A stretch of 64,000 nt of DNA from Candidatus Nanoarchaeia archaeon (GCA_038874075.1 JAVZDD010000003.1:25488-89487); one strand, 5' to 3'. Shown: positions 8,061 to 33,589, counted from the stretch's first letter. Notes: a model not told the origin generated them from the sequence alone. Numbers and translations: made by a program.

Positions 8061-11000
8061 CATTTTCCAAAAGTGGAGCATAACTATATTCTTTCACCTT
8101 CATGAACAAATGCTGGGTCTCATTAAACAAGAGTCCATATAACCAAGTGTAATAAATTTTTGTTATATTCGATGTTGTATTTGCACCATAAGTACCCGTT
8201 GCATAGGAATGTAAGTACAATGGGTGTTGCAATTGCCTGAATCTCCAACTTTGATCTTCGGTGAGGTTATATATTGTTTCGTATTCAAAGTAAATGCTTC
8301 CAAAAAAGTTTCTCTCAAAGAAAAGTGATTCTACATTATCATCAGTTTCAGTTTTTATTGAAAGTTCAGAAATTGTGAGATTTTCACCTGTCGCATTGAA
8401 TGTGAAGTTTATACCACCATTAATGATTCTCTGGTAATTTTTATTGGGTGATTGCAATGTGTGGTAGATTGTTTTATCACATGAGGCACCTGAGCAAACA
8501 TAGTTAGGATAGTCGGTATAATTTATTGTTCCCCTTGTATCTTTGATTGCGTATGGATTTAATACAATTCCACCTTCTGAACTGCAGTTTATTGTGAAAT
8601 TCAGATAAGTTGTATTCCTTACATTGAGGTTACTCAAATTCCATTCAATTGTTCTTGTGCTCGAATTCCAGCTTCCATTCCAAACTTGGGTTACATCACA
8701 AATTCCAGGAATTGGTAAATAAATCGTCCAATTGTTCGCTTGTGTGTCTCCAATGTTCCTCACGATTAAACTAGCATTATAAGTATAATTTGGTTGCAAA
8801 CTTCTCGGCTCATTCCAGGGAAAGTCAGGAAGCTGCCATAAAGCAAGATCGAATTCTATATGACTCTCATTTGTGTAATTTGCCGTTTGCAAATGATGGA
8901 ACTCATGCGGCTCATCCCAATCCACATTCTCATAGTTTAAATTCCACTTCATATTTCCTGTAGCTCCAATTGTCGTCGGAGCTTTTACTTGATAAGTAGC
9001 TACTCCATACTCATTCACATCAAAACCAGCAATTTGCCATATCACAAGATTGTTTTCCAAATCAACTGAGGAATTGAAATTCAATCCACCCAGCAAATTT
9101 GGATTTGCTGGTGTCCATCCAGGTTTTATCTCTTCTTTAAGTATCACATTTCCATTTATCGGTGCACATCCTTTGTTATGCAGTACTAGTGCACTTTCGA
9201 AAACACCATTCGGATAAACCCTTGTTGGTGTTTCCCTTATTACTTCGATCACAGAATGGTTTGCGTTACTCACATTCAATTGGTAAAGTTTAGTAATGTT
9301 GAACTCTAAAAACTCCTGCAAATAGGAAATCGAGACATTTATTGTTGCATTTTCTGCATTGTTAGGAGATGTGATGTTAAATTCAAACTTAATGTCCTCT
9401 GGTGTGAAAATGACATACTCTAAATAACCAGGCGATACATCCCAACCAGGAGGCACGCTCACACTTACATTTATTATTGTGTTTTCATCAGCATGGATCC
9501 CTTCTAATTCAACATTTAATGTTTCAGAAGTTCCGGGACACATTCTTGGATTGAGTGTTAGGTAAACTTGTTCAGGTATATTATAAAATCTCTCAAATCT
9601 GGTTGTCGAATTTCCATCGCTGAAATTCAAGGTTGTATTGACAACCAACATCTCGTGTGGCATATTCAGCGTGTTTACGAGAAATGTATAATTTATTAAG
9701 CTGTTTGGGGTCAAATTTAGATAAGTCGAATTTTCATAATAACTGACATTCCCATCCCAATTTGTTATGTTGATTGAAAGTAATGTGTCATTGTACCATT
9801 CATTGAATGGGTTTTTGATCGAAATGACCATATTAACCGTGTCATCACTTCTTAAATAAGTGACATCAGTTACTACGACTCTTTCTATCATGTAAATCGA
9901 TGCATTCACATAATCAATCATCAATGGCTCCGGACCATAATTTCGAAGTTGTAAGCCACAAGAACCATTGTTAAAAAGGCCAACATCCGGACCAAGTGGT
10001 CCAAGGGGCTTCATTGTGATATTTTCAGTCACAATCTGTGTGCTTGCAACCGTGAACCATTCTTTCTTTCCGTAGCCAATGATAACAGCATTGGCAGTAC
10101 CATTCAATGCTTCCCAGAAGATTTTTATGTCTGCTACTCTTGGCTCAATTGCACCACAATCCCATTCAAGCAATATACTTTCTCCAGGATCAACTTTTGC
10201 TTCAGCACTTTCATTATCAAAATCGTTACCAATCACCCCATCCAAAGAACAAACTTTGCTTGTAACATCTATCCCCTTTAATGTTAATCTGGCATTTGGA
10301 CACCCAAGATACTTATAACCCCAGACAATTGGATTCACATATTCTGTGTCATCATTACCTAATGAGTTATTTACATATATTGAAATACTAAAATTACCAT
10401 AAGTTGTTGCATTGATTGTCCATTTTACTTTCTTTAGTTCTCCAACCCCAATTGAACCAATATATTTAGTTCTATTATCTACCTGCCATTCTGAAGGGGC
10501 GTTCAATGTCACATAAACATCATTTGAAGTACTAACGAGGCTTGAAATCGTTGCATTTATTGTGAAGTTATTGTATTGGAATACTTCAATCGGAGAAAGC
10601 GCTTCTACGATTGTTGGTTGTGGTTCACAACCAGTTACGTCGATCGTTATTGTGAAATTCTCACTTATGTTACTATAGTAAGCACTGTCTTCACTAATCC
10701 ATGCAAACCATTTCTGGGCTCCTGGATTAAAATTACAATTTGGTGTGAATGTCACTGTTGCTATTCCATTTGTATCAGTTGTTGTTGAATTGACAAGATA
10801 ATTGTATATTCCATCATAACTCACATTGAAATAAACAGTCGTAGCGGGTGTCAAATTGTAAGTGTCAGCAATCAAATCCTTTACTCTTACTTTAAAAGTA
10901 GCTGCTTGTGTTAGATTCGCATAGCTATTGTTTCCAGAAACATATTCGATCGAAGTGTTATCTTTTTTGATTACAAAACTATCATAACCTGATGTTGATT

Positions 11001-14000
11001 CAGTAGCTAAACTGAACATGTAAAACCAAGTGCCAACATCTTGAGATGTAAAATTCTTGTACCAATACTTTGTTTGATTTATACAATCAGGATAACTACA
11101 ATTCAAAGGTGTTTGATTCACACAATCTGAGCACTCAGTGAAACCAGTCGGAGAACCCTTTGCTAATAATAATTTTACTTCATATGAATCTGTATCTCCA
11201 CTGCTTGATATAATAGAAAAATTCCAATTTTTATAACCCCAGCCTTGTGAGCTTGGAATCACACTTGGATTTTCCAATTTATAAATAGGGAAAAGATAGA
11301 ATAATCCAGGAGAAATTAATCTATAACTCACATTTGAATAGTAATAATTTGCTTCTGCGTACATCGTGGTATTGTACCATCCTTTTGGTGTGGTCACATT
11401 TGTATTCCAATCACAAGTATAAGCATTTGCACCTACTTGGCTTACTGGTGAGCACTCATAACCTGCTGTTGAATGATTCGCATAGAACTTTACATTTGTG
11501 CTTAATGGATCTCCGCAATCATCCGTTGTAGCACCTAAGAAAGGAATTTTTTGCTCCTGCGTATAATTCGTTGACCCATCTGGCTTTTGGAAATCCAAAT
11601 TTATATCTCCAGTTACAAGAATGCTTAAATTGTAGTAATTTTCCGTTGAATTGTCCTCATAGCATGCTTGTCCAGAAATTACAGCTTTCCATTTTTGATT
11701 TCCCACTTGGTATTTCGGAGAACATTTCGCCTGGAAATAGTAATTGGCATATGCGGATGAATTTGTTGTATTGCTCGTACCAACATCGTATATAGATCCA
11801 TCCAATGTTACATAGAAGGTAATCGGTAGATTTGTGATCAAAGTTCCATTTGCGTCTCTCACTCTTAATGCAAGTAATGTGGTCGTCTTTCCTCTTCTTG
11901 TTTCAGTGTTATTACCAATTACATCCTCAAAAATCGTCTTGTCTTTTGTTATCGTGAAAGTTTTCGTCGTTGAGTTCGTTGTTCCTGCATCATTCGTCGC
12001 ATTGAATTTCGCAAATACTGTTGAACCAATATCCTCACAATCTGGATCGAATTCGAATGTGAAATTTGTCCATTGTCCTGTCCCAGAGCCAGGTGCTTGA
12101 TATATCTGACAGTTTCCTACTTGTTTCCATGGTTCACTACCAGTCTTACTGAACCAGGCGCAAACGCTTACATTATTCTCGGAATTACTTACTCTTACAG
12201 TAATATTAAAAGTGAAATTGAATCCCCAAGCACCAGATGAACTTCCTGTTTCATTCGATACAATTGTTGCATTCTCCATTTCAATTGAGGCAGGAGGAGC
12301 TAGCACTTGTACATCTTTACAATTAAAAACAATCGTTGAGTTTTCAGTTGCATTTGCTTTTATGCAAAATGTATAAGTCCCTGGTGTTGTCCCAGATGTG
12401 TTAACAATGTAAGTGTAATCAGTATGTGCATTTCTTGATTGTAACGGACCTATTGTTCCAAGGTAAGTAAGATTACTAATTTCATTTGTGGAATTCCTAA
12501 CTTCAAATTTGCCTGTATAGTTTATCTCAACAATTACATTACTTGCATTGCCAGGACCAGCATTATAAATTGTTGATGAAATGTTGAAAACATCACCAGC
12601 ATATATCGTACTTGGTATTGTCGTTGGCTTTGAAACGTTTAATGAGGCACCACACGAAGCTGAGAAAATGTATGGTTTATTATAGTATATCAATGTTCCA
12701 TTTAAAGGTATTGCTTGGAATCTGAAAGTACCATTTGTTTGATATGTTACATTTAATGTGTAATTGTAATATTTTGAATAAGGCTTTCCATACGGAGATT
12801 GGAAATTTATATTATTGTCCCAGGTTATTTTTACTGAATCGTTTATCGTTGCAGGACTGCCTTCGCTTGACCATGTGTTTTGGAATATCAAATCTTGTGG
12901 ATGCGTTACAGTTAAATTTTCCTTATTTTCAGTAAAGTTGAAATTGCTTCCTGGCTGGTTTCCTTTGTTGAAAACTTGGAATGAAACATTGAAAGTACCG
13001 CACCCGAACGAGCTTGGAAAACCTATGAGCCACTGGGAAGAAGATGCATCATAATAATTTCTAATTGTTTTAATCCAAGGACCAAGAAGCGTTATTGTTC
13101 TCTTGTTTTTTGTCCACCACTCTCCCTTATTCCTTGCTGCTTCACCTAAGAGATTTTGATACCATGGTTTTCCTCCAGGTGCAAATTGAAGAATGCTTCC
13201 TATGGTTGTTTGTATGTTAGAAATCGTCACCAGACCACCTATCGTTGTTGATGTGGTGATGTAACCATTCGTAAATGCACCAAGTCTAGACCATCTAATC
13301 CACCAACCCTCATACATAGAACCTACTGGATAACCTGGATCAGGTGTATATCCACCACTAAAACTATCTCTACTTATATTGAAACCAGGAGGTATCCAAA
13401 GATCAATCACATACACATAACCAGCAGTTGCAGATCCTGTTCTTATCGCATATTGTATTGTTGCCGAGGAGCTCTCTCCAATTTCTGTAATGTTTAGGAA
13501 TGGATCAGGAGAACCGGAATGTCCCGTAGCAGCATTAGCAGAGATAAATGTGTCCGTTTTTGTGATCGTTTGTGAGCTCTGAGTAACGGGATCTACCCAA
13601 ACTACTTCTGTAACAAATTGACCATCTGCACTTGCCTCTTCTGGACCAACCCATTGGATTGTTGCATTGAAGCATGAAGATGTTGGTATTTCTCTATTTA
13701 ACCATTGAACTAGACTTGCAGTTATTGTATTCGCGCTTGGTCCTTCTATAATTGTTGGTGCTGTTGATGGTGATTGGCCAGAAGGATATACAGTAATATT
13801 AACTGTTAAGTTATAATCACCAAAATTACATACACTTAGTCTTTGGTAATTCCTACTACCACTATCACCTGTTCCTCTATTTGGATAAGTGGTAAATATG
13901 ATAAGTGGAGCAAGGTTGCCTTCTTCGGATTGATAAATATCAAATGTTTTTGTATAAGTAAGAGTTGGTCGATTAGTTTGATTTATTTCAACTTTTAAAG

Positions 14001-16504: not shown

Positions 16505-16536
16505 AAGTATTTGTACAAATATTTGTACAAATACTT
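16505..16536. promoter_or_regulatory. Perfect 32-nt palindrome (two tandem TTTGTACAAA cores); operator or terminator hairpin
   Basis: aagtatttgtacaaatatttgtacaaatactt. All 16 base pairs (16505/16536 through 16520/16521) verified as complementary. It overlaps the stop codon of the 727-aa gene and sits about 100 nt upstream of the giant ORF start. Confidence 0.6.
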
Positions 16537-18718
16537 AAGAAGTTTTGTTTACTAAAATTGTGATATTACCTGTATAAACATCAGCTACTTGCCCTGCTGG
16601 AACGAAAAGCCACCAATAAATTGGGATTATACTACCACTTTGTATGTTCTGTTGGAACAATATGAATTGATTCAAGAGTAAATTCATTTTTGAAGCAGGA
16701 TTTGAATTGTTTGCGCATTTTAAATTATTTACACTTATTGAACTTGCGCTTCCAATTAAATCTGTGTCTCCTCTCAGCCAAATCGATGTGTTCACATTTG
16801 ATTCAATGTAAACATTCATTGGAAACCCCTGAATTCCTGTACCACATTCTGTTTTCGAACCATCACTCGCATTTATTTCTATTCCAGTTCCGGTCACGCT
16901 ACCAAAGCAAATCGGATAATTTGAAAGTGTGACGCTTAAGAATTCTTCAACTATATTTACAGTGGTGTAGTCTGTTTTATTTGATTGTACATAGGGACTA
17001 TCAGAAACAAAATTAACATCGAGTTTGTAACTGCTCCCAACATTACCAGTGACATTCACGGTCCATTTTAAGCTGCAAGGTGGACTATTTAAATTTAAAT
17101 TTCCACATTCTTGTGGGTTTGATTCAATCGTATAGAAAGGTATTGCATATACACCGTTCCCCTGTACATTCGTGTCTGGATTTGAGTTTGATGTATTGTA
17201 TCTCAATGTACCATTTACTTTTCCACAAACAGCACCCTGTGGTCCAGCGCAGGTAACATTTGCTATCAATACAAAAGTTTGATTTTGTGCATAATTATTC
17301 GTTCCAGTTGGCGATATTAGTGTCACATTGAGATATCCGACCGGCGGATGGAATGATATTGAATAGGCCTCAAAAGTAGAAACCGTTGTGTCTGCTGTTA
17401 TTATAGAATCACCGTAATTTACATAATTAGTTCCATCAAAACTGAATGAACCAATGTCAAAATTACTATTTAATCTTGCACCGATTATGTTGATAGTATC
17501 ACTATCTGTTGGATTCGTGTATAATGATATCCATGCGCCAGTTCCAGCATAACTTGAAAAAGTAGTTGTGGAAGAAGTACATAGTGGTGAACAGGTTCTT
17601 TGGCTTAGAGTTGTACCAGTCGTATCTGTATCCCAAACCAATCTACCAGTAGAGCCAGATGGGTTCCATGCAAAGTCAGCACATCTTGCTGTTGCCAAAT
17701 CAACTGTTCCATCTATATTGGCTGTTATCGTCCATGAAGAACCATTCCAGTACATGGTATCTAGATCAGAGCCACTGTTGATGGAAACCGCCATTAAATC
17801 ATCACTAGCAGGATCTGCTTTTAATGTAAGCCATCTGGTATCCTGGTTATCCCCAGCATCCAAATCACCGATGTCTGCAACAGTCCAAGTTGAACCATCC
17901 CAATATCGTCCGACTACTGCACCGATAGTGCCAGTCGCGCTTATGACCATGCCCTTACTTCCATCTGATGCGTATTTTACTGCTATGGCTTCATATCCAC
18001 CCGTAGCAGTCGCAGCATCTGTTAATTCTACTCTATTACCCCAAGTGTTTCCGTTCCAAACCCAAGCATTTACATCACTACCCGAGGAATCAAAGCCGAC
18101 TAGTATTATTTCTTCGCTATTACTAACAGGTTTTCTATCTAATTTTACCCAACTATATTGAAGATCACTACCACCATTAGCACTATCATCATCTATACAA
18201 TATTCGACAGATTCTGAAAAGCTTGTTGAAGTTGCTGGCAAAATTTTGTAAGCCAAATCACAATTCACGCTTGTATTTAAAACACCATAAACCACTAATA
18301 AATCCCCAGTCTTTGTTTCGAATTCAATATCAAACCTTCTTGAGTGTGGTGTAGGTGCTGTGCTCCAGACTTGCCCAATGTTATTAGTGATAATCCATGA
18401 ATTTGTGTTGTTACAATTAGAAGTGCAAACATATGCGTCTAAATAACCATCATCACTTTGCGTAACTAAAACAATTTTTTCCGAGACAGGAGAATACTTA
18501 ACTATCACTTCTCTTATAGGTGAACCTGCTGTTGGTAATTCGATTTCACTTCCCCAACTACCAGCATTAGATGAATTCCAAAATCTGATTTTTGGTGAAT
18601 TTAATCCGTAGGTCCCAGTATTTGATCTATAAGCAATAATCGCATCCGTAGCGCTTACTGGTGACAGGGTGAAAGTTAAAATAAAAAAAGATAGCGCGAG
18701 AAGAAATTTTGATTTCAT
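16535..18718 (-). CDS. Secreted 727-aa protein: signal peptide, beta-propeller-like W-x-G-x-x-W repeats, Ig-like domain, C-terminal subunit-like domain shared with the 183-aa and 217-aa proteins
   Basis: ORF track. N-terminus is MKSKFLLALSFFILTFTLSPVSATDA. Recurrent blades end in FWNSSNAGSW, WVWNGNTW, YWDGSTW, YWNGSSW and FAWNPSGS. The C-terminus (EEFLSVTLSNYPICFGS...IYWWLFVPAGQVADVYTGNITILV) aligns by eye with ORFs 22315 and 23621. Confidence 0.85.
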   Translation of the reverse strand: MKSKFLLALSFFILTFTLSPVSATDAIIAYRSNTGTYGLNSPKIRFWNSSNAGSWGSEIELPTAGSPIREVIVKYSPVSEKIVLVTQSDDGYLDAYVCTSNCNNTNSWIITNNIGQVWSTAPTPHSRRFDIEFETKTGDLLVVYGVLNTSVNCDLAYKILPATSTSFSESVEYCIDDDSANGGSDLQYSWVKLDRKPVSNSEEIILVGFDSSGSDVNAWVWNGNTWGNRVELTDAATATGGYEAIAVKYASDGSKGMVISATGTIGAVVGRYWDGSTWTVADIGDLDAGDNQDTRWLTLKADPASDDLMAVSINSGSDLDTMYWNGSSWTITANIDGTVDLATARCADFAWNPSGSTGRLVWDTDTTGTTLSQRTCSPLCTSSTTTFSSYAGTGAWISLYTNPTDSDTINIIGARLNSNFDIGSFSFDGTNYVNYGDSIITADTTVSTFEAYSISFHPPVGYLNVTLISPTGTNNYAQNQTFVLIANVTCAGPQGAVCGKVNGTLRYNTSNSNPDTNVQGNGVYAIPFYTIESNPQECGNLNLNSPPCSLKWTVNVTGNVGSSYKLDVNFVSDSPYVQSNKTDYTTVNIVEEFLSVTLSNYPICFGSVTGTGIEINASDGSKTECGTGIQGFPMNVYIESNVNTSIWLRGDTDLIGSASSISVNNLKCANNSNPASKMNLLLNQFILFQQNIQSGSIIPIYWWLFVPAGQVADVYTGNITILVNKTS

Positions 18719-18724
18719 CTTTGT

Positions 18725-19972
18725 TCACTTGTATATTTTAACATACTTTATAACTCCATTGAAATTATCAAATGTTTGTCCTGTCCATTTGTAGTATCCT
18801 ACATCCGCCCCAATTGAGATTGGAACTTCACTATTAATACTCTTTATTCTTGAAATATCTCCTTGAGCTTCGAGCATGCCGTCAACATACAATAATATAT
18901 CATTTTGATTTAAAAGCACGAATATTTGATGGAATTTTCCATCATTATACGCTTTGTTTGTCTCAATCGATACAGAGTTATCACCATCACCAATATCAAA
19001 TCTTATCGTTCCTTCAGAATTGACTGCTAATACAAAAAACTTCCCATTCAAATAATCATTTCTGGATATAATCGTACCACTTGAATTTGGATATATTTTA
19101 ACATCAGTTTCTATTTTGAAAAAATTATCATTTAAATAGAATTTCTCTGAGTCTTTGATTATTACATAATCTTTCTCTCCGTCGAAATATAGACCTCCAT
19201 CTTTCATCTTGAATTTATCTCCCGACGAATAGTCCCAAGTGAGCACATCTAATTTTGATGGAATGTTTTGGTTAATTGGAGAAATTACCGGTTGGCTGAT
19301 ATACTGATCACTTTGATTTAGTGTTTGCATTTGAATTGGTTCATAACCCAAAAATTTATAATCTATTTTTTCAATTTTAATTGTCATATTTCCATCAAAG
19401 GTTAAAATAAGATCATAAGTACTATCAGTTAAATTTAAAATATCACATATCTCTCCACACATATTTTCAAAATAAAATGTTTCAGGTTCTTCGATCGTGA
19501 AATTGATTTCCTCCGTTACATTTATTGTTTGTGTAATTGTTTCATTTGTTGTCTCATTCACAAATGTGATGTTTTGTTCTCTTGTAACGTTCTCTGTAAC
19601 TATTGTTTGATTTAATTCAAAGTTTTTGGAAAGTATAGTATATATCTTCCCATTATTCTCCAAGTAAATACTTAGGTTACCAGAACTATTTGCGATTACA
19701 TAACCAGAAATTTTTACGGAAGTTAAAGTACAATTTGTTAGGTTGCAAGAATTTTTTAATATCCAATTGTAAATAGTAGGTTCATTTGTTTCAAAATTAA
19801 TCTCATCCACATAGTTCAATTCAACCGGGTTCCATGTTTCGTAGATAAAGAAACCCGTGATTGAACTAATTTCATTGAACCCAATGAATATCACGTAGAG
19901 AGATAGAAATAACAGAACTAAACTTATCAGATTTAGTAATGACCATTTGCTGAAAATTATTTTTTTCCTCAT
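18725..19972 (-). CDS. N-terminally anchored, sequon-rich protein with a C-terminal LamG/concanavalin-A-like lectin domain
   Basis: ORF track. TM segment is LLNLISLVLLFLSLYVIFIGF, followed by SSITGFF. The C-terminal about 170 aa (DGGLYFDGEKDYVII...GKFHQIFVLLNQNDILLYVDG...FNGVIKYVKIYK) match the Laminin_G_3 pattern (F.G.ID.V.IY ending). Confidence 0.8.
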   Translation of the reverse strand: MRKKIIFSKWSLLNLISLVLLFLSLYVIFIGFNEISSITGFFIYETWNPVELNYVDEINFETNEPTIYNWILKNSCNLTNCTLTSVKISGYVIANSSGNLSIYLENNGKIYTILSKNFELNQTIVTENVTREQNITFVNETTNETITQTINVTEEINFTIEEPETFYFENMCGEICDILNLTDSTYDLILTFDGNMTIKIEKIDYKFLGYEPIQMQTLNQSDQYISQPVISPINQNIPSKLDVLTWDYSSGDKFKMKDGGLYFDGEKDYVIIKDSEKFYLNDNFFKIETDVKIYPNSSGTIISRNDYLNGKFFVLAVNSEGTIRFDIGDGDNSVSIETNKAYNDGKFHQIFVLLNQNDILLYVDGMLEAQGDISRIKSINSEVPISIGADVGYYKWTGQTFDNFNGVIKYVKIYK

Positions 19973-20032: not shown

Positions 20033-20794
20033 TTATTCTAGTCTGAGTAAGAATCTAGCAATTTTATCAATTATGCTTCTCTCTTCCTCTTCTATGCCAC
20101 AAAGCTTTTTTGCTAGTTCCTTGAATTTTTTCGAAGAACTTGCATTCGGATTCAGTAAAACAACAGGTATCTTGAAAAATAAACTTCTTGCGACTTCATC
20201 ATCATGTGGTATTACCGACAATATTGGAATATCACACATTTCTTCGATTTCTTCAATTTTCATTCTGTATTTTTTCTTATACATGTTCACAACAAGCCCA
20301 GTCAATTTTACATTGTATTCATTCAACACATCTTTAACTCTCATCACATCAACAACACTCATGAAATTTGGATTTGCTACTAAAAGAACTTCGCTTGAGG
20401 CGAGTAATGTTCCCATCGTTTCTCTTCCGAATCCTGGTGCAGAATCAAGAAGTACGAAGTCTGCCATACCTAATACATCTTTTATCTTTTTCCTTAGGTT
20501 CACGATATCAACACCAATCATGCTGTGCGAGGAAAGAGAAGCAGGAATGATTTTCACACCACTTTTGTGTTCGTATATTGCATCATAGATTTCATATTTT
20601 CCCTTTAACACGTCATTTATCGTAACAGAATAATCATGAATTCCGAAATAGAGCGCCAAATGCGAAGTAGATATATTGCAATCAACAATTATCACTTCCT
20701 TACCCAATTGCGCAAGACATACGGCCAGATTTGCAGTTACTGTCGTCTTACCAACTCCACCCTTTCCAGACATAATTCCAATTACCCTGGTCAT
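20033..20794 (-). CDS. MinD/ParA-family P-loop ATPase (deviant Walker A)
   Basis: MTRVIGIMSGKGGVGKTTVTANLA... carries the KGGxGK[ST] deviant Walker A motif. Length is 253 aa. The start ATG overlaps the TGA of the upstream 469-aa gene (tcat at 20791-20794). Confidence 0.9.
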   Translation of the reverse strand: MTRVIGIMSGKGGVGKTTVTANLAVCLAQLGKEVIIVDCNISTSHLALYFGIHDYSVTINDVLKGKYEIYDAIYEHKSGVKIIPASLSSHSMIGVDIVNLRKKIKDVLGMADFVLLDSAPGFGRETMGTLLASSEVLLVANPNFMSVVDVMRVKDVLNEYNVKLTGLVVNMYKKKYRMKIEEIEEMCDIPILSVIPHDDEVARSLFFKIPVVLLNPNASSSKKFKELAKKLCGIEEEERSIIDKIARFLLRLE

Positions 20795-22200
20795 TTCTCT
20801 TCCTCTCTACTTTCCAATGCCTTTAATCTTTCTTCACATTTTTCCTTTATTTCATCATATGCATTCTTTGATATATTGCCAATTGCATATTCTTTTTCAA
20901 TTATCTTCAATAGTTGTCTGAGTCGCTTTATTTTCTCTTTTGGTGCTGTCTCTTTTTCTTCAGCTATCTTTTCCTTTACGGCCTCCATGAACTTCTTATC
21001 TATTTCTCCCTTCATCTTCTTTACATCGATTTGAGCACCAGGTATTCCTTTCTCCATCGTTCTCAATACTTCTGAACTATAGAAACTCAATATTCTAGCA
21101 AGCCTTTTTTCTGACCATCGATGGTAAATGTAAATCGCAATGATTGGTATTGTGATTAACACGATATAAGAAATGATAATTAATGTATTCATCTTTGCAT
21201 ATTCTGGTAGATATGGTAAATTGTTTATCTGTTCTTCACTTTTTGTCAGCAATTCATCCGCACTTGCAAGCGCAATCAATGCTTGGTCAAATTTTTCCTG
21301 CTCCAAGTACTGCTTGGCAAAATTTAATTGCATCTCAGCCTGTTGTATTAGCAATGAAATTGAAGACGTATTTCTTCCTTCAAATATCGCTGCTTGCATC
21401 TTTAACTTTGCATCATTCAATCTAACTTCAAGTTTCTGCATATCGAACATGGCAAGTTCCTTTGCAGAGGTGAAAACGCGCATTAATGCCTTCTTGACAT
21501 CAAACAAACCTTCTGCTGATGAAACACGCATCGTTATTTCATAATTCTTTGTTGTTGCATTTGGGGGCACATTTATTCTAAAAGAAAACACAAGCTCTGT
21601 GTTTGGTAGTATACGATCGTAAATTTCCGGTGAAATCGTGTACCAATCATTTTCAATACCATCAATTGTGAACGTTAAATTGTGGAGTATTTCATCTCCA
21701 CTGTTCCTCACTTTTAATGTAAAAAGTTTTGACCACCCACGTTCAGCGCTTATCTCAATTGGATATTCAGTGATGTTGAGATTTGTGGTAGTTATGTTTA
21801 CGATTCCCTTTGCAACGTAAAATTGTTTGTTCGTAGATAAATCAGTACTCGTATTGCTGAACTTTAACTTTACCTTTAATAAGTAATTTCCTGGGGGTTG
21901 TATTGAGAAGATGTAAACTTCTCTAGACAAATTAACAAAGGCAGGAGCATCGCTAATATAAACGATTGTTGTTTCCCTTATCCAAGTACCACCATCCATC
22001 GATTCAATCCAATACTCTATTGATGCATCAGCGCCAGGACCACGTGTTTTGTTTATTAAGATATTAAAGGGTAAAAATTCTCCCTGTCTTACAATTGTCT
22101 TATCCAATTCAATACTGACTGTACCTTCCTGAATTTGAGCATTTGAAATAGAAAAAATCAATAGTGGAAGTACGATGAAGATGAAAATCTTTTTTTCCAT
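20791..22200 (-). CDS. Bitopic surface protein: signal peptide, two Ig-like (CARDB/NEW3-like) domains, helical stalk, TM, K/E-rich cytoplasmic tail of about 100 aa
   Basis: ORF track. Signal peptide is MEKKIFIFIVLPLLIFSISNAQ. TM segment is LIIISYIVLITIPIIAIYIY. The tail ends ...KEYAIGNISKNAYDEIKEKCEERLKALESREEEK. Confidence 0.85.
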   Translation of the reverse strand: MEKKIFIFIVLPLLIFSISNAQIQEGTVSIELDKTIVRQGEFLPFNILINKTRGPGADASIEYWIESMDGGTWIRETTIVYISDAPAFVNLSREVYIFSIQPPGNYLLKVKLKFSNTSTDLSTNKQFYVAKGIVNITTTNLNITEYPIEISAERGWSKLFTLKVRNSGDEILHNLTFTIDGIENDWYTISPEIYDRILPNTELVFSFRINVPPNATTKNYEITMRVSSAEGLFDVKKALMRVFTSAKELAMFDMQKLEVRLNDAKLKMQAAIFEGRNTSSISLLIQQAEMQLNFAKQYLEQEKFDQALIALASADELLTKSEEQINNLPYLPEYAKMNTLIIISYIVLITIPIIAIYIYHRWSEKRLARILSFYSSEVLRTMEKGIPGAQIDVKKMKGEIDKKFMEAVKEKIAEEKETAPKEKIKRLRQLLKIIEKEYAIGNISKNAYDEIKEKCEERLKALESREEEK

Positions 22201-22223
22201 TAAAACTAATTTAAAGATTTGCG

Positions 22224-22231
22224 TTTTATAA
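22224..22231 (-). promoter_or_regulatory. TATA-like box for the minus-strand operon (469-aa gene / MinD ...)
   Basis: Plus strand ttttataa. Its centre is about 27 nt upstream of the ATG at 22200, which is compatible with a leaderless archaeal transcript. Confidence 0.4.
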
Positions 22232-22285
22232 TTCTTTCTTTTTAAATCTTTTCCTGCATCTGTTTTTAAGTAAATCCGAAAGAGA

Positions 22286-22292
22286 TTTAAAT
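22286..22292 (+). promoter_or_regulatory. TATA-like box for the plus-strand six-gene operon
   Basis: TTTAAAT is centred 26 nt upstream of the ATG at 22315 (leaderless geometry). AGATTTAAA here is the inverted copy of TTTAAATCT at 22241-22249. Confidence 0.4.
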
Positions 22293-22314
22293 GATGAAAG
22301 TTTCTTATTAGAAC

Positions 22315-22866
22315 ATGAACAAAGAATTTGATGCCATGTTAGTAGTAACAATTGCCATCATTGTTTTAGGAGTTTTTTCTGTGATCGCATACAGGGAAAA
22401 CCTTGTTTCTGGAATTGCTTCATTGACCGGTTACGCAACATGGAATCAAACAACTTCCGCGAGTGTTACAGTGAATGAGTACATCTCAGCAACTCTTTCA
22501 AACATACCAATTGATTTCGGTAGCTTAGATCCAGGTACAACAAACCAACCTGCAACGAATAATCCATTATTAGTTCAAGTCGGAGCAGAAACAAATGTTG
22601 AATATAACATCACTTTGAATGGTACCACTAATTTCGTCTCAGGTGGAAATAGTTTCTCTGTAGGAAATCTCTCTTACAACACAACAGAAATTACAACACC
22701 AACACCTTATGAATTAAATGTTGAAAAAAATGCATACACGAATGAACCATGTCCCTGCGGAACACAAGCAGATAGAAACGTCTGGCATTACATTTCTGTG
22801 CCAGCTGGACAAGTAGCTGGAGCGTATTCAGCAAACATAAAAATCACAGTGAAGAAGAGTACGTAA
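22315..22866 (+). CDS. Small N-terminally anchored beta-rich protein, subunit-like paralog 1
   Basis: ORF track. TM segment is MLVVTIAIIVLGVFSVIAY, followed by SLTGYATW. Motifs ISATLSNIPIDFGSLDPG, ETNVEYNITLNG, FSVGNLSYNTT, CPCG and the terminal strand WHYISVPAGQVAGAYSANIKITV are shared with ORF 23621 and with the C-terminus of ORF 16535. Confidence 0.85.
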   Translation: MNKEFDAMLVVTIAIIVLGVFSVIAYRENLVSGIASLTGYATWNQTTSASVTVNEYISATLSNIPIDFGSLDPGTTNQPATNNPLLVQVGAETNVEYNITLNGTTNFVSGGNSFSVGNLSYNTTEITTPTPYELNVEKNAYTNEPCPCGTQADRNVWHYISVPAGQVAGAYSANIKITVKKST

Positions 22867-22904
22867 ATATTAAATATCAAAATTACCTAAGTTAAGAAAG
22901 CGAG

Positions 22905-23624
22905 GTGCAAAAAATGACAAGAATAGTTAGCTCTTTAAAAATTGTTTCCATGCTTCTACTCTTTATAATGTTTCTAAACATTTCACACGCACAAAAGTGT
23001 AGTCTTGGAATGACTCCTCTTTCTGCATCTGTGAGAGCGACCCCAGGACAAACTGCGATCATAATTTGGAATTTATATAACATTTATGGTGATAGATTAA
23101 CACATGTAAGTTTGACATACACTTCAGATGTTGATTGGCCTGTTACATTTGATCCAGCGCTTAAAAATGTAACGTATGACATTGCAGGACAAATAGTAAC
23201 TGTTACTGAGAACTTGGCATTGGAACCAAATCCACCAGTAACAGTAAAACCTGAAGTAATTCCACCAGGAACAAACTATGTAAAACATCCATTCACTGAT
23301 GAGTACATTCCTGTAAAGACTGTTAAAATATCAATAAAAATTCCTGAAAATGCTGAGGTTTGGAAGACACATGAATTTACAATATTGGCTGAGGGAAATT
23401 GCTTCACTGCACCTGGTGCAGTTATACCATCACTTTCAACTCCATTGAAAATTACACTTCAAGTGGTTCCAAGAGAATTTTATGAAAAGGCAGTTTTACA
23501 AATACCATGGTACGTCCAATATAGCTATGTGATTATTGCAATCGTGATAATCGTGCTCTTAGGAATAATATATTGGAGTTATAGAAGAGGAAAAAAATTA
23601 ACCCAAAAAGTGAGTAAAAAATGA
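22905..23624 (+). CDS. C-terminally anchored Ig-like surface protein, partner paralog 1
   Basis: ORF track. It has a signal peptide, then AQKC, and a C-terminal TM (YVIIAIVIIVLLGIIYW) followed by RRGKK. It is paralogous to ORF 24264 through shared LYN[IL]YG, THV, IP[VA]K.V...I..P.NAE[VL]WKT and VVP.E[FY]YE[KR]A. Confidence 0.85.
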   Translation: MQKMTRIVSSLKIVSMLLLFIMFLNISHAQKCSLGMTPLSASVRATPGQTAIIIWNLYNIYGDRLTHVSLTYTSDVDWPVTFDPALKNVTYDIAGQIVTVTENLALEPNPPVTVKPEVIPPGTNYVKHPFTDEYIPVKTVKISIKIPENAEVWKTHEFTILAEGNCFTAPGAVIPSLSTPLKITLQVVPREFYEKAVLQIPWYVQYSYVIIAIVIIVLLGIIYWSYRRGKKLTQKVSKK

Positions 23625-24274
23625 AATTTGAAATACCACTAGGACATATCATTGCAATTCTAATAGGATTACTTGTATTTTTTCCTGTGTACAACTACCT
23701 AAGCTTTGGAAGAATAGGAGTCGAAGTTACAGGTTTCGAAGCATTACCAAAAACACAGCAAGCACAAGCAATTCTAAGCATAAATAGATACATCAATACA
23801 GGCATCGATAAAGTACCAATTGATTTTGGTTCTGTAGATCCAGGTTACACATACAATGCAACTCCAAATTCTGGATGGCCTTCAGAATTAATATTATATT
23901 GGGAAACAAACGTTGAAACAAATGTAACATTTTGGGGCACTCAATACTTTTGCAGAAGTAATACAGCCTGTGATGTTGAGCTCGTGAATAGGTTTCAAAT
24001 TGGTAACTTAACGTTCAATACCACAAGCATTAATTTCACGCAGCCAGGGGATGCATGGATGCATTACATTTGGGGAAAGTTTGATAATACAATTCCACAG
24101 AAATCAGTTAATTATACAGAAGCGAATGCTGATTTGATATATAACACAACTTGCCCTTGCGGTGAAGAAAATTATACATTACCAAATTACTTCAGATTGT
24201 CTGTTCCCCCAGGTGTCAGAACAGGAAATTGGAACGCAACCGTCACTTGGAAAGTGATAGATATTGGAACATAA
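23621..24274 (+). CDS. Small N-terminally anchored beta-rich protein, subunit-like paralog 2
   Basis: ORF track. ATGA overlap with the upstream gene. N-terminal hydrophobic segment is HIIAILIGLLVFFPVY, followed by VTGFEAL. Motifs: VPIDFGSVDPG, ETNVETNVTFWG, FQIGNLTFNTT, CPCG and YFRLSVPPGVRTGNWNATVTWKV. Confidence 0.85.
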   Translation: MKFEIPLGHIIAILIGLLVFFPVYNYLSFGRIGVEVTGFEALPKTQQAQAILSINRYINTGIDKVPIDFGSVDPGYTYNATPNSGWPSELILYWETNVETNVTFWGTQYFCRSNTACDVELVNRFQIGNLTFNTTSINFTQPGDAWMHYIWGKFDNTIPQKSVNYTEANADLIYNTTCPCGEENYTLPNYFRLSVPPGVRTGNWNATVTWKVIDIGT

Positions 24275-24986
24275 AATAATCCAAAAACTTTCAATTTGTA
24301 GCCTTTTTTTATTTGTACTTTTCTCTATCTCTTTTGCCCAATGTGATTTTGGAACAATGCAGCCAGTGCTCGCTTATAGTGCTGCACCTGGTGCAATCAT
24401 AAATGCAAAAATCTATTTGTACAATCTTTACGGTACTTATCCAACACATGTCTTGTTCAATGTTACAACAGCACCCCCAAATTGGGTAATTAATATTAAT
24501 CCTCCAGCCAGGAATGTGATTTATGAGATTCCAGGAGGAACAACAACCATATTTGAAAATGTTGGCGTCGAGCAGATGGATAGGGTAAATGAAACACCCG
24601 CTACACCTCCCGAAGGAATTGAATATATAAGAGACCCAGTTAAGATTGGTATGTTTATACCAGCAAAAGTTGTTTATGTGAACATAGAAGTACCAAACAA
24701 CGCTGAACTTTGGAAGACGTACGATATAAAGATCTCAGCAAGTGCTTGGTGCACTGGTGGCGCTCCTGGTACAGTTGGAGCAACGCAATCAAGGGACTTC
24801 AATTTCCAAGTTAAAGTTGTACCAACGGAATATTATGAGAGAGCACAAGTGAAAGTTGGATGGATTGAATTTTTAAGACAAAACGCAATTCTCGTTGCAT
24901 TAATTGTAGCAATCATTGTCGTAATTCTCATAATCTTCGTATTAAAGAGGATGGGAAAATTAATATTGAAAGTTGAACTTAAATAG
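24264..24986 (+). CDS. C-terminally anchored Ig-like surface protein, partner paralog 2
   Basis: ORF track. 11-nt overlap with the upstream gene. It has a signal peptide, then AQC, a C-terminal TM (ILVALIVAIIVVILIIFVL) and KRMGK. Conserved blocks as in ORF 22905. Confidence 0.85.
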   Translation: MEHKIIQKLSICSLFLFVLFSISFAQCDFGTMQPVLAYSAAPGAIINAKIYLYNLYGTYPTHVLFNVTTAPPNWVININPPARNVIYEIPGGTTTIFENVGVEQMDRVNETPATPPEGIEYIRDPVKIGMFIPAKVVYVNIEVPNNAELWKTYDIKISASAWCTGGAPGTVGATQSRDFNFQVKVVPTEYYERAQVKVGWIEFLRQNAILVALIVAIIVVILIIFVLKRMGKLILKVELK

Positions 24987-26946
24987 ATTTATGGATAAAT
25001 CGAAATTGTCCATTCTTTTTATTTTCTTCGTACTATTCAGCATTGTATTTGCAAATTCTCCAACTGCTGAATCTAGTGTCACATTCAGCGTCCAAGACCT
25101 GTATCCAAACGTCTCGATTGAACCAAGCCCCATTTTAATTAAGATTAGACCGAATTCAAGTGATAGATACAGTATCGTTGCAAGGTCATTGATTGGAAAT
25201 TTACCGATAAACGTTTCATTTGAATTACTTGGCAATGTAACGAACATTTCTTTCATATATCCAACAGAGCTTTCACTTGATGTACTAGAAGCGAAATCAA
25301 TCGGATTTTATATCTCAACTGAAAACATTTCTGTTTCGAATTACACAGGTGAACTTCACTCCATAATAAATGAAACAGGTGTTGAGAACTCAACACCCAT
25401 ATTTATTGAAGTGAGTGAAAATGTTGGGAGATTTCATATACATGTGGTTGATGAGGCAAACAGATCATTGGAAGGAGCATTCGTGCAAGTGTACCAAGGT
25501 GTAAATTTCGTTGAACAGGGCTATACAGATGGTAATGGGATGTACATTACCCATTATTATGACATGGATTTGTACTATGCCTTTCTCGTGATGAGAGAAG
25601 GTTATACCTCTACGACAAGAGGTAAAAGACTAACTGAGCCTGAAATGTACTTTGAGATTGTTATGGGAGGTACTCCTCAATTGAATTTCAATCCTAGCAA
25701 TGTGACAATTTCAATGTATATAAATCAAACAAGAAATAAAACACTCACGCTTGAAAATATTGGTACTGGAAAGGAGAAGTGGATAGAAATAATTTCAGAT
25801 ACTAGTTGGTTAGTTCCGAACGTTAGAGAGATCGAGTACATAGAACCAGGTGGTTATCGTGAAATCACTGTGAACATTGGACCATTTTCACAGAGTGGAA
25901 CATACACAAGTAGACTAAGAGCATTTGGTTACAAATCAAGTGCTATTGCATATTTTACAATCGATGTACGTCTACTTCCTTTTTGTGGTGATGGTGTTTG
26001 TGGAGGAAACGAAACATGTGAAAATTGTCCAGAAGATTGTGGACCTTGTCCACCCCCACCACCTTTACCACCAGGTCCACCTGGTCCCGGTGGTGGTGCA
26101 CCCACACAACCAACCCAACCAGGTGCAGGAGTGACTCCGGGTGCGGGAGCAGGAGGAGCACCAGGTGCTGGTGCGGGGGGAATAGGAGCAGGTGGCGCTT
26201 ATCCTTGGGAACAAATTACCAGATTTCCAAGACTCGATGTCTCATATCCAAGAGAAATCACACTTACGAAGTTGGTTCCAAAATTAGTATTTATTTACAT
26301 AAAAAATGTCGGTGAAATTCCGATTACTAATATGGCCCTCTATACGAACGCAACGAATATTTCAATTGAAATTCATCCGATAATGTATTCAATTTTATTC
26401 ATAAATGAAACCAGGATTTTTTTATTAAAGCTACTTGCCAGTGAGATAACACAAGGAAACATTATCTTGAAAATTGATTCTGGTGAAATTGAAACATACA
26501 ATGTCATAAAATTTAATGTTATTTCATCAGAGGTTGATCCAGAGGCACTTTTGAGAGAAATTGATTCAATCATAAATGTTCTTAGGAAAGCAAATGAGGA
26601 AGTTGAAGAACTGGCAAAGGAGGGTTACACAGTAGCACCAGCTGTTTCGCTCATAAATGCAATTGAAAGCAAGTTATTAAAAGCAAGAGATGCAGTTCGT
26701 GCTAAGGCGTATTATGAAGCAAAGGCAAGGATCGATGATTCACTTAGGGACATCGATGACTTGTATATGATGATTTCGAAGATAAGGGAGCAAGGTCCTG
26801 CAAAGCCAGCAGGAATAAATTGGTGGCTCATTTTATTATTAATAATTTTATTGATTTTAATCTTAATTTTAATAATTAAGAGAAGGAAGAAAAAGGAGGA
26901 GGTTGAGGAAGTTAAAATACCAAAGAAAAAAGCTGAGAAAAAATGA
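24973..26946 (+). CDS. Large type-I anchored surface protein: Ig-like domains, carboxypeptidase-regulatory-like domain, CGDGxC Cys knot, Pro/Gly linker, helical stalk, TM
   Basis: ORF track. Landmarks: HIHVVDEANRSLEGAFVQVYQG...GYTDGNGMY; FCGDGVCGGNETCENCPEDCGPCPPPPPLPPGPPGPGGGAP...; helical ALLREIDSIINVLRKANEEVEELAKEG...; TM WWLILLLIILLILILILII followed by KRRKKK. The true start may be the second Met (MDKSKL, 24991). Confidence 0.85.
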   Translation: MNLNRFMDKSKLSILFIFFVLFSIVFANSPTAESSVTFSVQDLYPNVSIEPSPILIKIRPNSSDRYSIVARSLIGNLPINVSFELLGNVTNISFIYPTELSLDVLEAKSIGFYISTENISVSNYTGELHSIINETGVENSTPIFIEVSENVGRFHIHVVDEANRSLEGAFVQVYQGVNFVEQGYTDGNGMYITHYYDMDLYYAFLVMREGYTSTTRGKRLTEPEMYFEIVMGGTPQLNFNPSNVTISMYINQTRNKTLTLENIGTGKEKWIEIISDTSWLVPNVREIEYIEPGGYREITVNIGPFSQSGTYTSRLRAFGYKSSAIAYFTIDVRLLPFCGDGVCGGNETCENCPEDCGPCPPPPPLPPGPPGPGGGAPTQPTQPGAGVTPGAGAGGAPGAGAGGIGAGGAYPWEQITRFPRLDVSYPREITLTKLVPKLVFIYIKNVGEIPITNMALYTNATNISIEIHPIMYSILFINETRIFLLKLLASEITQGNIILKIDSGEIETYNVIKFNVISSEVDPEALLREIDSIINVLRKANEEVEELAKEGYTVAPAVSLINAIESKLLKARDAVRAKAYYEAKARIDDSLRDIDDLYMMISKIREQGPAKPAGINWWLILLLIILLILILILIIKRRKKKEEVEEVKIPKKKAEKK

Positions 26947-28559
26947 GGAGAATTATCTTAATATTAACTATTCTTTTGTTAATTGAAACATCACTTGCAT
27001 TAGAACCAGTAATATCTGTTTCGCCAGTACAAGTGAATAAATCAGTTCTAATACTAGGTAAAATATCAAACTTTTTTGAAGTTTTCACATTTGATGGAAA
27101 TGAATCTGCAAACATAACATTCAGCACAGAAGGTGAAATTGCTGGTTGGATAAAATTACAAGATAATTCAATTATGATCGGACCTAATAGCAGCAGGAAA
27201 GTATACTACACGATCAATGTGCCAAGGACAAATCCAGGAACGTATGGTGGGAAAATTAAGTTAGCAACGAGTAAGGGCCAAGTAGATGAGATCAATTTGA
27301 CGATAAGTACCAGTTATGCATTAGGTAAATTTGTGATTGAAGGTTTATCTGGAAATAAAATTGTTTCCAATTTTTCTGTTTTTGTTTATAAAAACAATGA
27401 TCTTATCTATCACGATTCAACGTCAAACGGATATTTAATTTCGGACTACTTCCCATATGGCGAGTACAAAGTTATTGTTAGAAGTGATTTTTTTTATGAA
27501 GCATCCAAAAATATTTTTTTGAATGCACCAGAGATAGTATTGCTTTACAATTTGACGAGAGTTCCAACAATCTCAATCAAACTAATTCCCGAACAAGTAG
27601 TGATGGATGTGTGCGAAACAGAAACTGGTTCATTTTCAATCACGATAAAGAATGATGGCGAAGAGGATTTTAATGCAAGTGTAAGATATGATGATAAACT
27701 TATAAAGCCAGAGATTGAACAAATGAAAATTTCATCCAAAAATTCTTTTAATTTAGGATTCAAGACAAAAAAATTGAGTGAAGGCAATTACACAACAACA
27801 ATAGGTATCGGCAATGAGAATTTGACGAGAAATGTTTCATTAAATTTGCGGATTATACCTCTCTCACAATGTAGCATTACACAGATTGCAGAAATAAAAG
27901 TGAGAGACAGGGTAGAAGTCGCTAAGAATTATATTTCACCAATCGTGGTCATTGTAAGAGCAAATCAAAAATTGGGAACGCTGATCATCAGTGTGAAATC
28001 CAAATTTTTCACTGAGGTCTATCCACAAAATTATTTAAATTTGAAGATTGACGAAGAAGCACCATTTTTGATTCGAATAATTCCAAATGAAACAACGAAT
28101 GATACGCTGCTAATAAGTTTAAGAAGCAATGTTGGTGAAATGAGTGATGTGGTAAGCGTTTCTGTTTATGATTCATTGAATAAGGAGATTGTTGGGAGAG
28201 AAATAAATGATACAAGGGAGCTCCTGAATAATATTAGATCGAAAATCATTCAAAAAGGCATTCTGGGAGAAAGGATTGATGAGCCAATGCTTTTGGTCGG
28301 TGAGTATTTAACAAAACTAGATATGGCTTCAACATTGTACGAAAGCGACCTAAAAAGTGCAAAAGAATACGTTGATATGGCCACAGTTGGTGCAAGACAA
28401 ATGCTGGTTGACTATGTAGCAGTAACGGAAGTTAAAAAAACAAATTATGCGATTATCATTCTCGTTCTGATCATTATTGCATTCATTGCTACCTTACTGT
28501 ACTGGAAGTTCATTCTTCCAAAAAGGAAAAAAGAAGAAGCTGAGAGAAAGGGATTTTAA
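26943..28559 (+). CDS. Large type-I anchored surface protein with the same architecture as ORF 24973 but no Pro/Gly linker
   Basis: ORF track. ATGA overlap with the upstream gene. It has a signal peptide, an Ig-like domain (WIKLQDNSIMIGPNSSRKVYYTINVPRTNPGTYGGKIKL), a CarboxypepD_reg-like segment, a helical stalk, and a TM (YAIIILVLIIIAFIATLLYW) followed by a basic tail. Confidence 0.85.
   Translation: MRRIILILTILLLIETSLALEPVISVSPVQVNKSVLILGKISNFFEVFTFDGNESANITFSTEGEIAGWIKLQDNSIMIGPNSSRKVYYTINVPRTNPGTYGGKIKLATSKGQVDEINLTISTSYALGKFVIEGLSGNKIVSNFSVFVYKNNDLIYHDSTSNGYLISDYFPYGEYKVIVRSDFFYEASKNIFLNAPEIVLLYNLTRVPTISIKLIPEQVVMDVCETETGSFSITIKNDGEEDFNASVRYDDKLIKPEIEQMKISSKNSFNLGFKTKKLSEGNYTTTIGIGNENLTRNVSLNLRIIPLSQCSITQIAEIKVRDRVEVAKNYISPIVVIVRANQKLGTLIISVKSKFFTEVYPQNYLNLKIDEEAPFLIRIIPNETTNDTLLISLRSNVGEMSDVVSVSVYDSLNKEIVGREINDTRELLNNIRSKIIQKGILGERIDEPMLLVGEYLTKLDMASTLYESDLKSAKEYVDMATVGARQMLVDYVAVTEVKKTNYAIIILVLIIIAFIATLLYWKFILPKRKKEEAERKGF

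Positions 28560-30604: not shown

Positions 30605-33589
<2,985 letters not shown>

Follow-up and report, generated by a model that had tools for sequence, protein, structure and literature searches.

A duplicated two-gene cassette in the genome of a Candidatus Nanoarchaeia archaeon encodes components of what is very probably a single, dedicated cell-surface complex. The cassette lies in a 64,000-nucleotide (nt) stretch of DNA (GCA_038874075.1 JAVZDD010000003.1:25488-89487; hereafter, the window, meaning this whole stretch) and pairs a gene for a small secreted protein, A, with one for a membrane-anchored partner, B; the third component of the proposed complex, X-A, carries an A domain at the C-terminus of a larger protein. 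The best-supported reading of this arrangement makes A a putative filament subunit and B its putative assembly and anchor partner. The argument starts from five genes.

A1, 22315..22866, plus strand: 183 amino acids (aa); small secreted protein, predicted pilin-like β-sandwich (open reading frame (ORF), homologues, profile, AlphaFold/Foldseek).
B1, 22914..23624, plus strand: 236 aa; partner of A1, with an alternative GTG start at 22905 (ORF, homologues, model).
A2, 23621..24274, plus strand: 217 aa; divergent A1 paralogue with an insertion of ~35 aa (ORF, BLASTP, profile).
B2, 24264..24986, plus strand: 240 aa; B1 paralogue and partner of A2 (ORF, BLASTP, profile).
X-A protein, 16535..18718, minus strand: 727 aa; candidate tip or cargo subunit (BLASTP and profile).

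The window is archaeal, as shown by its 23S and 16S rRNA and RNase P RNA, and has a GC content of ~35%. Its proteins are matched exactly in the NCBI assembly GCA_025920735.1 (contig JAPDLF010000002.1), and the closest named relative for the A and B genes is Candidatus Haiyanarchaeum thermophilum (Nanobdellota, Jingweiarchaeales), of a hot-spring DPANN lineage. An earlier note on this sequence had described four ORFs in the order A1-B1-A2-B2, with overlaps of 4 nt between B1 and A2 and 11 nt between A2 and B2, as two pairs of paralogues, and all of this was borne out. A1 and A2 align along their whole length with 30% identity (BLASTP, E = 9e-18) and B1 and B2 share 36% identity (E = 7e-35), a similarity far beyond chance in both cases. 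For B1, the likelier start is the ATG at 22914, since a GAGGTG Shine–Dalgarno sequence stands in front of it; this yields the 236-aa protein of the public assembly. The motifs listed for the A proteins are also present, namely IPIDFGSLDPG / VPIDFGSVDPG, CPCG and the terminal strand (SVPAGQVAGAYSANIKITV / SVPPGVRTGNWNATVTWKV), of which CPCG is specific to the lineage: PAPVG or PPPGG stands in its place in the closest homologues, P0003-P0007.

A1 begins with a transmembrane helix and a spacer ending in LTGY, followed by the strand SASVTVNEYISATL and a β-sandwich that ends 2-3 residues before the stop codon; it carries five N-X-S/T glycosylation sequons. The A domain, ~135 aa long, is modelled as a pilin-like (SCPU/DUF4402-like) β-sandwich. 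An exhaustive profile search gathered 1,079 representatives (50%-identity clusters) of the family at E<=1e-3 and 398 at E<=1e-10. Among the best 160 members, 110 are stand-alone proteins of 140-230 aa and 50 are longer. The named sources include Nanoarchaeota, ‘archaeon BMS3Abin16’ and a Dehalococcoidales bacterium; the taxonomic picture rests on few named records. One JGI record bears the name ‘spore coat protein U-like’.

The likeness of A to SCPU and DUF4402 subunits, which the earlier note had suggested, stands in part. In a Pfam scan of 109 stand-alone members, DUF4402 was matched in 33 (best E = 4.5e-5) and SCPU in 5, and these matches are real; all of them fall under the gathering score, and no family is matched above threshold. 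A1 itself matches DUF4402 at E = 0.0049 (18 bits, cutoff 25.2), and GH123_N_2 appears below threshold in 31 of the 109, over the last hairpin only. Judged by sequence, A is thus not a DUF4402/SCPU member by curated thresholds; it forms a new family, and the closest relatives that could be detected for it are SCPU/DUF4402 subunits, which build archaic chaperone-usher pili. The further resemblances suggested for A, to TasA/camelysin, AbpA and thread subunits, found no support: profile searches of the PDB gave no sequence link to these or to cannula subunits, and with A profiles of 14 and 109 sequences no TasA, AbpA, Taf, thread or CanA chain appeared at E<=10. The only PDB match of A, B or the 727-aa protein in these searches, where there was one at all, was the C-terminal VPxGxxaGxY hairpin of the GH123 N-domain.

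The AlphaFold model of A1 is moderate (predicted local distance difference test score, pLDDT, 67; predicted template modelling score, pTM, 0.54; the other four models, 38-49). It places a helix at residues 3-38 and a β-sandwich after residues 39-55, which are left unpaired. Nearly all of the top 30 Foldseek matches in the PDB are chaperone-usher pilins (FimI, CfaB, CsuA/B, Caf1, FimA/F/G, PapE), with weak scores for a query model of pLDDT 67 (E = 2e-3 to 1e-2, TM-score 0.3-0.56); TLP-1a ranks 17 and cannulae rank 49.

The B1 model is good (pLDDT 82) and comprises a signal peptide, one large sandwich (residues 31-184) with an irregular insertion at residues ~100-130, a transmembrane helix and a basic tail; in this model, B has the topology of a type-I membrane protein, as would suit an anchor. 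The signal peptide, the Cys near its cleavage site, the single Ig-like domain with a long insertion and the C-terminal transmembrane segment had all been recognized in the earlier note, and the irregular loop (~residues 100-130) proves to be conserved. Its suggestion that B might be a chaperone fared worse when taken as homology, because B is not detectably PapD-like. Its sandwich is of a generic NEW3/GH123-N type: the GH123 N-domain heads the Foldseek ranking (E = 6e-6), followed at 1e-4 to 9e-4 by CooA/CfaE pilins, cohesins and chaperones, with the PapD-like FaeE, FimC and CsuC and MSP at E = 3e-4 to 9e-4. B has no Pfam match at E<=1, and a Pfam scan found PapD_N, PapD_C and Usher in no protein of the cluster. 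Homology between A and B is not supported either: by hhalign only the VPxGxxaGxY hairpin aligns, with a probability of 29%.

Nine residues of B are invariant (Y55, N56, H64, W75, P81, E99, N100, P144 and E191), and most of them are polar or aromatic. E99 and N100 mark the start of the irregular loop, E191 lies in the linker before the transmembrane helix and the others are spread elsewhere in the sandwich. They could form a metal- or ligand-binding or catalytic site rather than having a purely structural role. B2 is the copy nearer to the B proteins found outside DPANN. Two Cys of the DPANN B proteins, one after the signal peptide and one at position 163, are absent in distant B proteins. In non-DPANN pairs, a B loop with the sequence MVCITVP resembles the A strand ASVTV, which we note as a lead only; the resemblance is not seen in B1 or B2.

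The third component came to light through the 727-aa protein, which consists of a signal peptide, a W-rich repeat region, an Ig-like region and a C-terminal A domain (residues ~565-727; window 16538-17026) that ends 1 aa before the stop codon. The earlier note had singled out its C-terminal domain. The last ~160 aa match A at E = 6e-11 by BLASTP and at E = 5e-52 by profile, and the protein resembles a two-domain tip subunit, with the N-terminal strand of A absent. Its orthologues adjoin A/B cassettes in relatives. The position of the domain is general, as it ends <=6 residues from the C-terminus in 48 of the 50 long family members, whose X parts include subtilases (Peptidase_S8, E = 4e-47 and 6e-48), WD40 propellers, CARDB domains and a 3,552-aa Ig-repeat giant. 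The A domain of this giant, P0134 (L032, 3736-14394; Pfam DUF2341 match), shares 44% identity with the one in the 727-aa protein. The P0134 gene stands directly upstream of an A1-B1-A2-B2 block that continues with three further genes, C, D and E, so giants can serve an A/B system as cargo. In the sister assembly GCA_025920645.1 (L031 12077-14359, equivalent to window 16535-18718), the 727-aa gene is split into parts of 147 and 579 aa, which may be due to variation between strains, to assembly or to a frameshift.

To follow the pair through other genomes we used a GTDB genome scan, which yielded 3 loci by an insensitive pattern method, and a metagenome scan, which yielded 19. In the window and in loci L014 and L015, the order is [X-A] A1 B1 A2 B2 C D. 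In Haiyanarchaeum, L011 and L012 it is A2 B2 C D A1 B1, X-A lying on the opposite side, and in L032 the 3,552-aa X-A precedes A1 B1 A2 B2 C D E. At every locus of this lineage, the A1-type gene adjoins the B1-type and the A2-type adjoins the B2-type; the duplication therefore copied the whole pair, and rearrangements have moved the pair as a unit. The adjacency of A and B thus survives rearrangement within the lineage, and it also holds in distant archaeal and bacterial loci. There, A is 30-40% identical and has an ordinary Sec signal peptide with an AxA site, and the operon begins with the small A, continues with X-A and ends with B (L005, L017, L019, L020, L021, L023, L024, L025). L004, which also holds bacterial PNPase and S15 genes, and L022 have A and B alone. 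B lies immediately downstream in 10 of the 12 non-DPANN loci with enough flanking sequence, the exceptions being L027 and L010.

A one-to-one pairing of A with B, as had been supposed, is found within the lineage of the window; elsewhere there is usually one B per operon with 2-3 A-type genes. The several A paralogues of such operons (an A variant, A and X-A) resemble, by analogy, major and minor subunits. Outside the DPANN lineage, the minimal conserved module is A, X-A and B, with no C, D or E. Three loci of a bacterial-like sub-clade add a fourth gene after B (L005 3044-4126, L020 1968-3095, L025 7684-8778), whose product has a signal peptide, an ectodomain of ~300 aa, a C-terminal transmembrane anchor and the conserved cytoplasmic tail RRRRAREAA..WPTG...DWE.R, and belongs to no Pfam family. 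The hosts of the module are single-membrane prokaryotes: Nanobdellota, other archaea and Dehalococcoidia-type bacteria. A literature search found no published description of an A/X-A/B system.

A first clue to mechanism is the N-terminal strand of A, its best-conserved block. Only a few residues separate the signal-peptide cleavage site from an A-x-V-x-V pattern (A49, V51, V53) conserved at 0.79-0.89; F68, N94, P163 and Y171 are also among the most conserved columns. A linker replaces A-x-V-x-V in 33 of 37 X-A fusions, which keep the following EYISFTV strand. A strand present in the major subunit and absent from the two-domain tip is, by analogy, the pattern of chaperone-usher pili. AlphaFold leaves the N-terminal strand of the A1 monomer unpaired (pLDDT <50). 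Direct-coupling analysis of 213 sequences (effective number, Neff, 178) recovered the modelled strand pairs and also coupled the N-terminal strand with both the core and the C-terminal hairpin, through E55-K181, V53-A173, V53-I160 and A49/V53-N94. These couplings are compatible with insertion of the strand into a neighbouring A.

A second indication comes from expression signals. Six loci each contain a single copy of a GC-rich hairpin (GGGGGAGCC-loop-GGCTCCCCC), ~17 nt past the stop codon of the first A-type gene, with z-scores of -3.2 to -5.0; the A proteins encoded in front of it are only 32-70% identical. The hairpins are located as follows.

L005, 992-1012: post-A hairpin.
L016, 4640-4668: post-A hairpin.
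L021, 2254-2274: post-A hairpin.
L022, 913-934: post-A hairpin.
L025, 4739-4758: post-A hairpin.
L028, 2545-2564: post-A hairpin.

A terminator scan found no significant hairpin behind A in L017, L019, L004 or L023, so the element is confined to one sub-clade. It is likely to be an attenuator or a stem-loop that stabilizes the mRNA. Because it is conserved after the first A gene, A is probably expressed in excess over X-A and B, as for the genes of major pilins.

On these grounds we tentatively propose, with somewhat less than even confidence, that the three proteins form a chain, B-(A)n-X-A, held together by strand complementation and anchored by B. We infer the strand exchange, the length of the polymer and the dual role of B as chaperone and anchor. 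The sandwich of A would be completed in trans. As A and X-A emerge from export, B would catch them at the membrane and lend them a strand, for which its conserved irregular loop is the probable source; the N-terminal strand of the next A would then displace the previous partner. In the resulting chain, the X-A head domain would stand clear of the membrane and B would stay at the base as the anchor. A1/B1 and A2/B2 would represent two co-diverged specificities, and the X-A subunit would be the 727-aa protein here and subtilases or giants elsewhere.

Several observations weigh against this chain. The A model is moderate, with no Foldseek match below E = 1e-3 and TM-scores of 0.3-0.5, and all Pfam similarities lie under gathering scores; B resembles the GH123 N-domain (E = 6e-6) over PapD-like chaperones (E = 3e-4 or weaker). 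The A1 and B1 predictions are single-chain models. Four of the 37 fusions retain an SVTV-like segment before the A domain, and the ladder of couplings is not clean, intramolecular and intermolecular contacts being indistinguishable in it. Subtilases are commoner as cargo of docking modules than at pilus tips. In the lineage of the window, A has a transmembrane helix and ITG[FY] in place of an ordinary signal peptide and may stay membrane-bound, and the translational coupling of A and B there suggests production at ~1:1.

Chaperone-usher pili, above all the archaic/sigma Csu type with SCPU/DUF4402-type subunits, are among the closest known systems. They share with the A/B system a small subunit, predicted in A to be Ig-like, whose conserved N-terminal strand has alternating small hydrophobic residues, and two-domain proteins (FimH, CsuE, PapG in the pili) with a C-terminal subunit domain and no strand; for A, gene order and the hairpin behind the gene suggest a major subunit in excess, and the best Foldseek matches and the DUF4402/SCPU matches below threshold agree with this comparison. 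They differ in having a PapD-like two-domain chaperone, an usher and an outer membrane, none of which is found here, where B is instead membrane-anchored with a single domain, profile scores are under threshold and the cargo includes proteases. It is possible but doubtful that the system is an usher-free, single-membrane counterpart of chaperone-usher pili, in which anchored B would be both chaperone and anchor and A fibres would be tipped with giants or subtilases; if so, it would in nanoarchaea be the apparatus that presents giant host-attachment proteins.

In overall architecture, the closest described precedent is the WxL/WxLIP cluster, which did not figure in the earlier interpretation, and the closest archaeal one is the tafi system with TafF; the likeness of A and B to either may be one of analogy. 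WxL clusters of Firmicutes encode a small WxL protein, a large WxL protein and a WxLIP (DUF916-DUF3324-transmembrane), and in AlphaFold models a disordered WxLIP loop becomes a strand that completes the WxL sandwich (PMC10599100, PMC9772566). The three-part architecture is common to these clusters, including the Csc clusters of Lactiplantibacillus, and to A, X-A and B. A nevertheless differs in lacking a WxL motif or Pfam WxL match (its consensus has ...HWLxVP..., and the dual WxL motif is absent), in resembling chaperone-usher pilins and in its conserved N-terminal strand. B has one sandwich, not two, and no WxLIP, DUF916 or DUF3324 match, and the hosts have no peptidoglycan, which WxL is proposed to bind.

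The same comparison frames the main rival to the chain, a possible if less likely reading in which no fibre forms: the A domain would be a C-terminal retention module and B its anchored receptor, with the small A acting as an adaptor, stabilizer or competitor in complexes of 1:1 or 1:1:1. A small protein, a large protein sharing its C-terminal domain and a transmembrane-anchored Ig-like protein is precisely the WxL arrangement (PMC9772566, PMC10599100). Docking would also fit the X domains, which include subtilases, β-propellers and CARDB, the constantly C-terminal position of the A domain, the cohesins in the B Foldseek list, the translational coupling of A and B in this lineage, and the sub-threshold WxLIP_HBD/PGBD matches of the neighbouring protein D (below). 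It accords less well with the stand-alone A, which is the commonest form and comes first in the operon, with a hairpin behind it that implies excess expression; nor does it give a role to the conserved N-terminal strand specific to that form, and several A paralogues per operon and the lack of a WxL motif or Pfam WxL match also count against it. Cohesin-dockerin pairs, the C-terminal domain of type IX secretion (T9SS CTD) and surface-layer homology (SLH) domains similarly combine a small domain at the extreme C-terminus of enzymes and adhesins with a dedicated cell-bound receptor; they differ from the A/B system, where the domain is also abundant as a stand-alone protein with its own N-terminal strand, and there is no sequence relation.

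Fibres of single-membrane cells provide the other set of precedents. For tafi (TafA/C/E with TafF), AlphaFold models led to the proposal of a tip protein, an adaptor and a major subunit together with the C-terminally membrane-spanning TafF (PMC11821415, PMC12337348), TafF being the predicted membrane anchor (PMC11821415). TapA nucleates by strand complementation (PMC10151520), and the Mth60 fimbriae have an operon, mth58-61, in which Mth59 is the proposed chaperone (PMC10370314). Tafi, archaeal bundling pili and TasA-TapA are, as proposed for A, Sec- or Tat-exported donor-strand fibres of single-membrane cells. A differs from them: neither sequence nor profile comparison links it to TasA, AbpA or Taf proteins, and its modelled fold is nearer to chaperone-usher pilins than to TasA-like proteins. 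A scan of the cluster proteins and of ORFs around them turned up no SipW/TafD-type signal peptidase and no DUF5305 protein.

The cassettes of the window sit in a conserved island of surface-protein genes, whose remaining members are listed here.

C, 24973..26946, plus strand: 651-657 aa; surface protein with a C-terminal transmembrane segment (ORF and domain scans).
D, 26943..28559, plus strand: 538 aa; Ig-like domains and a C-terminal transmembrane segment (ORF and domain scans).
E469, 20791..22200, minus strand: NEW3-like Ig domains, transmembrane segment, cytoplasmic coiled-coil tail (ORF and domain scans).
Archaeal MinD-type ATPase, 20033..20794, minus strand: TIGR01969, 238 bits against a cutoff of 201.75.
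LamG-domain surface protein (LamG415), 18725..19972, minus strand: 415 aa; transmembrane helix and ITGF N-terminus as in A1/A2.
Giant surface-protein gene, 5' part, 1..16404, minus strand: C-terminus beyond the window.
Divergent intergenic region between E469 and A1, 22201..22314, no strand: TTTAAAT TATA-like boxes (read from sequence), ~25 nt upstream of the A1 ATG.

C, which adjoins the cassettes in Nanobdellota relatives as well, has a signal peptide, CarboxypepD_reg-like and Ig-like domains, a Pro/Gly-rich linker, a coiled coil and a C-terminal transmembrane segment. D has a signal peptide, an N-terminal and further Ig-like domains, a coiled coil and a C-terminal transmembrane segment; its N-terminal domain matches WxLIP_HBD at E = 6.9e-6 (26.5 bits, under the 28.9 cutoff), and its orthologues match WxLIP_PGBD at E = 7e-5 and 4e-4, both under the cutoff. 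E469, transcribed divergently from A1, has a signal peptide, NEW3-like Ig domains, a transmembrane segment and a cytoplasmic coiled-coil tail of ~110 aa. It overlaps minD by 4 nt (20791-20794), and the pair is kept beside the cassettes in Haiyanarchaeum, which suggests that a cytoplasmic positioning ATPase is tied to the surface island. In GCA_025920645.1, E469 is called as 460 aa. The giant gene has >5,468 codons inside the window and is called as 12,055 aa in the source assembly and as 3,857 aa in the sister assembly; its Haiyanarchaeum orthologue has 5,418-5,492 aa. Its product starts with a winged helix-turn-helix-like cytoplasmic segment of ~75 aa, a transmembrane helix and GSITGF, followed by Big_1/NEW3/Filamin/Big_7 repeats. 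No NCBIfam family was found for A, B, C, D, E469 or the 727-aa protein.

The make-up of this island suggests a further explanation, which we consider improbable: that these are envelope components of the surface-layer (S-layer) type, with C, D and E469 as SlaB-like stalks and A as a lattice or accessory protein. C, D and E469 share a signal peptide, β-sandwich, coiled coil and C-terminal transmembrane segment, which we take to be the architecture of SlaB in Sulfolobales S-layers, and the island is conserved whole, encodes giant Ig-repeat proteins and is rich in glycosylation. Outside DPANN, however, the module is reduced to A, X-A and B; A is small (~15 kDa), X-A proteins are enzymes or adhesins, and no similarity to known S-layer proteins was found in the PDB or Pfam.

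An unusual N-terminal signal recurs in four proteins of the island: a transmembrane helix and 10-15 residues precede an [ILV]TG[FY] motif, located in the sequence as follows.

Giant protein, ITGF at residue 107 (16083-16094), minus strand.
LamG415, ITGF at residue 38 (19850-19861), minus strand.
A1, LTGY at residue 37 (22423-22434), plus strand.
A2, VTGF at residue 36 (23726-23737), plus strand.

P0134 and P0026 of relatives carry the signal too. Homologues of A outside DPANN start with an ordinary Sec signal peptide. The [ILV]TG[FY] signal may be a motif for processing or sorting that is specific to this lineage. The N-terminal helix also raises the question of whether A1 and A2 are archaeal type IV pilins, with a PilB/PilC machine encoded elsewhere. 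The A1 model, with its helix at residues 3-38 and its β-sandwich, has the appropriate outline, some close homologues begin MKG-M..., and Pilin_N is weakly matched (E = 0.14) in 2 of the 109 stand-alone members. We nevertheless rejected this reading as very improbable. The N-termini are inconsistent and show no consistent class III cleavage motif (A1 has ...FDA-M, A2 ...PLG-H), the signal peptides of distant homologues are ordinary Sec ones with an AxA site, and the giant protein carries the transmembrane helix with ITGF too, 100 aa from its start and behind a cytoplasmic domain. The X-A fusions, moreover, place the A domain at the C-terminus of large proteins, and Pfam found no PilB, PilC or PibD among the cluster proteins and the ten larger ORFs of the window.

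Beyond the island, a Sec61-beta-like gene of 54 aa (28556-28720, minus strand) overlaps the end of D on the opposite strand, and a TrmB-family regulator (29005-29865, plus strand) and RNase P RNA (29837-30123) follow downstream. The 23S and 16S rRNA genes are unlinked (30612-33582 and 37702-39218, minus strand), with ~4 kb between them that holds a class I aminoacyl-tRNA synthetase gene (33833-36172), a tRNA and a 284-aa ORF. An MG2-domain surface protein of 1,097 aa is encoded at 40400-43690 (minus strand).

In cells that lack an outer membrane, the way in which donor-strand fibres are put together and anchored is an open question, and papers on tafi, bundling pili and cannulae assume, to our knowledge, self-assembly free of chaperones. 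A membrane-anchored Ig partner encoded with pilin-like subunits is a testable candidate for such machinery in archaea and monoderm bacteria. It would also link chaperone-usher pili, WxL clusters and archaeal fibres, which have so far been treated separately, and ~1,000 sequence clusters now labelled ‘hypothetical’ would gain a family assignment. For DPANN archaea, the analysis identifies a conserved island that probably presents giant adhesins to the host, such as the 3,552-aa protein of a relative and the product of the 12,055-aa gene next door.

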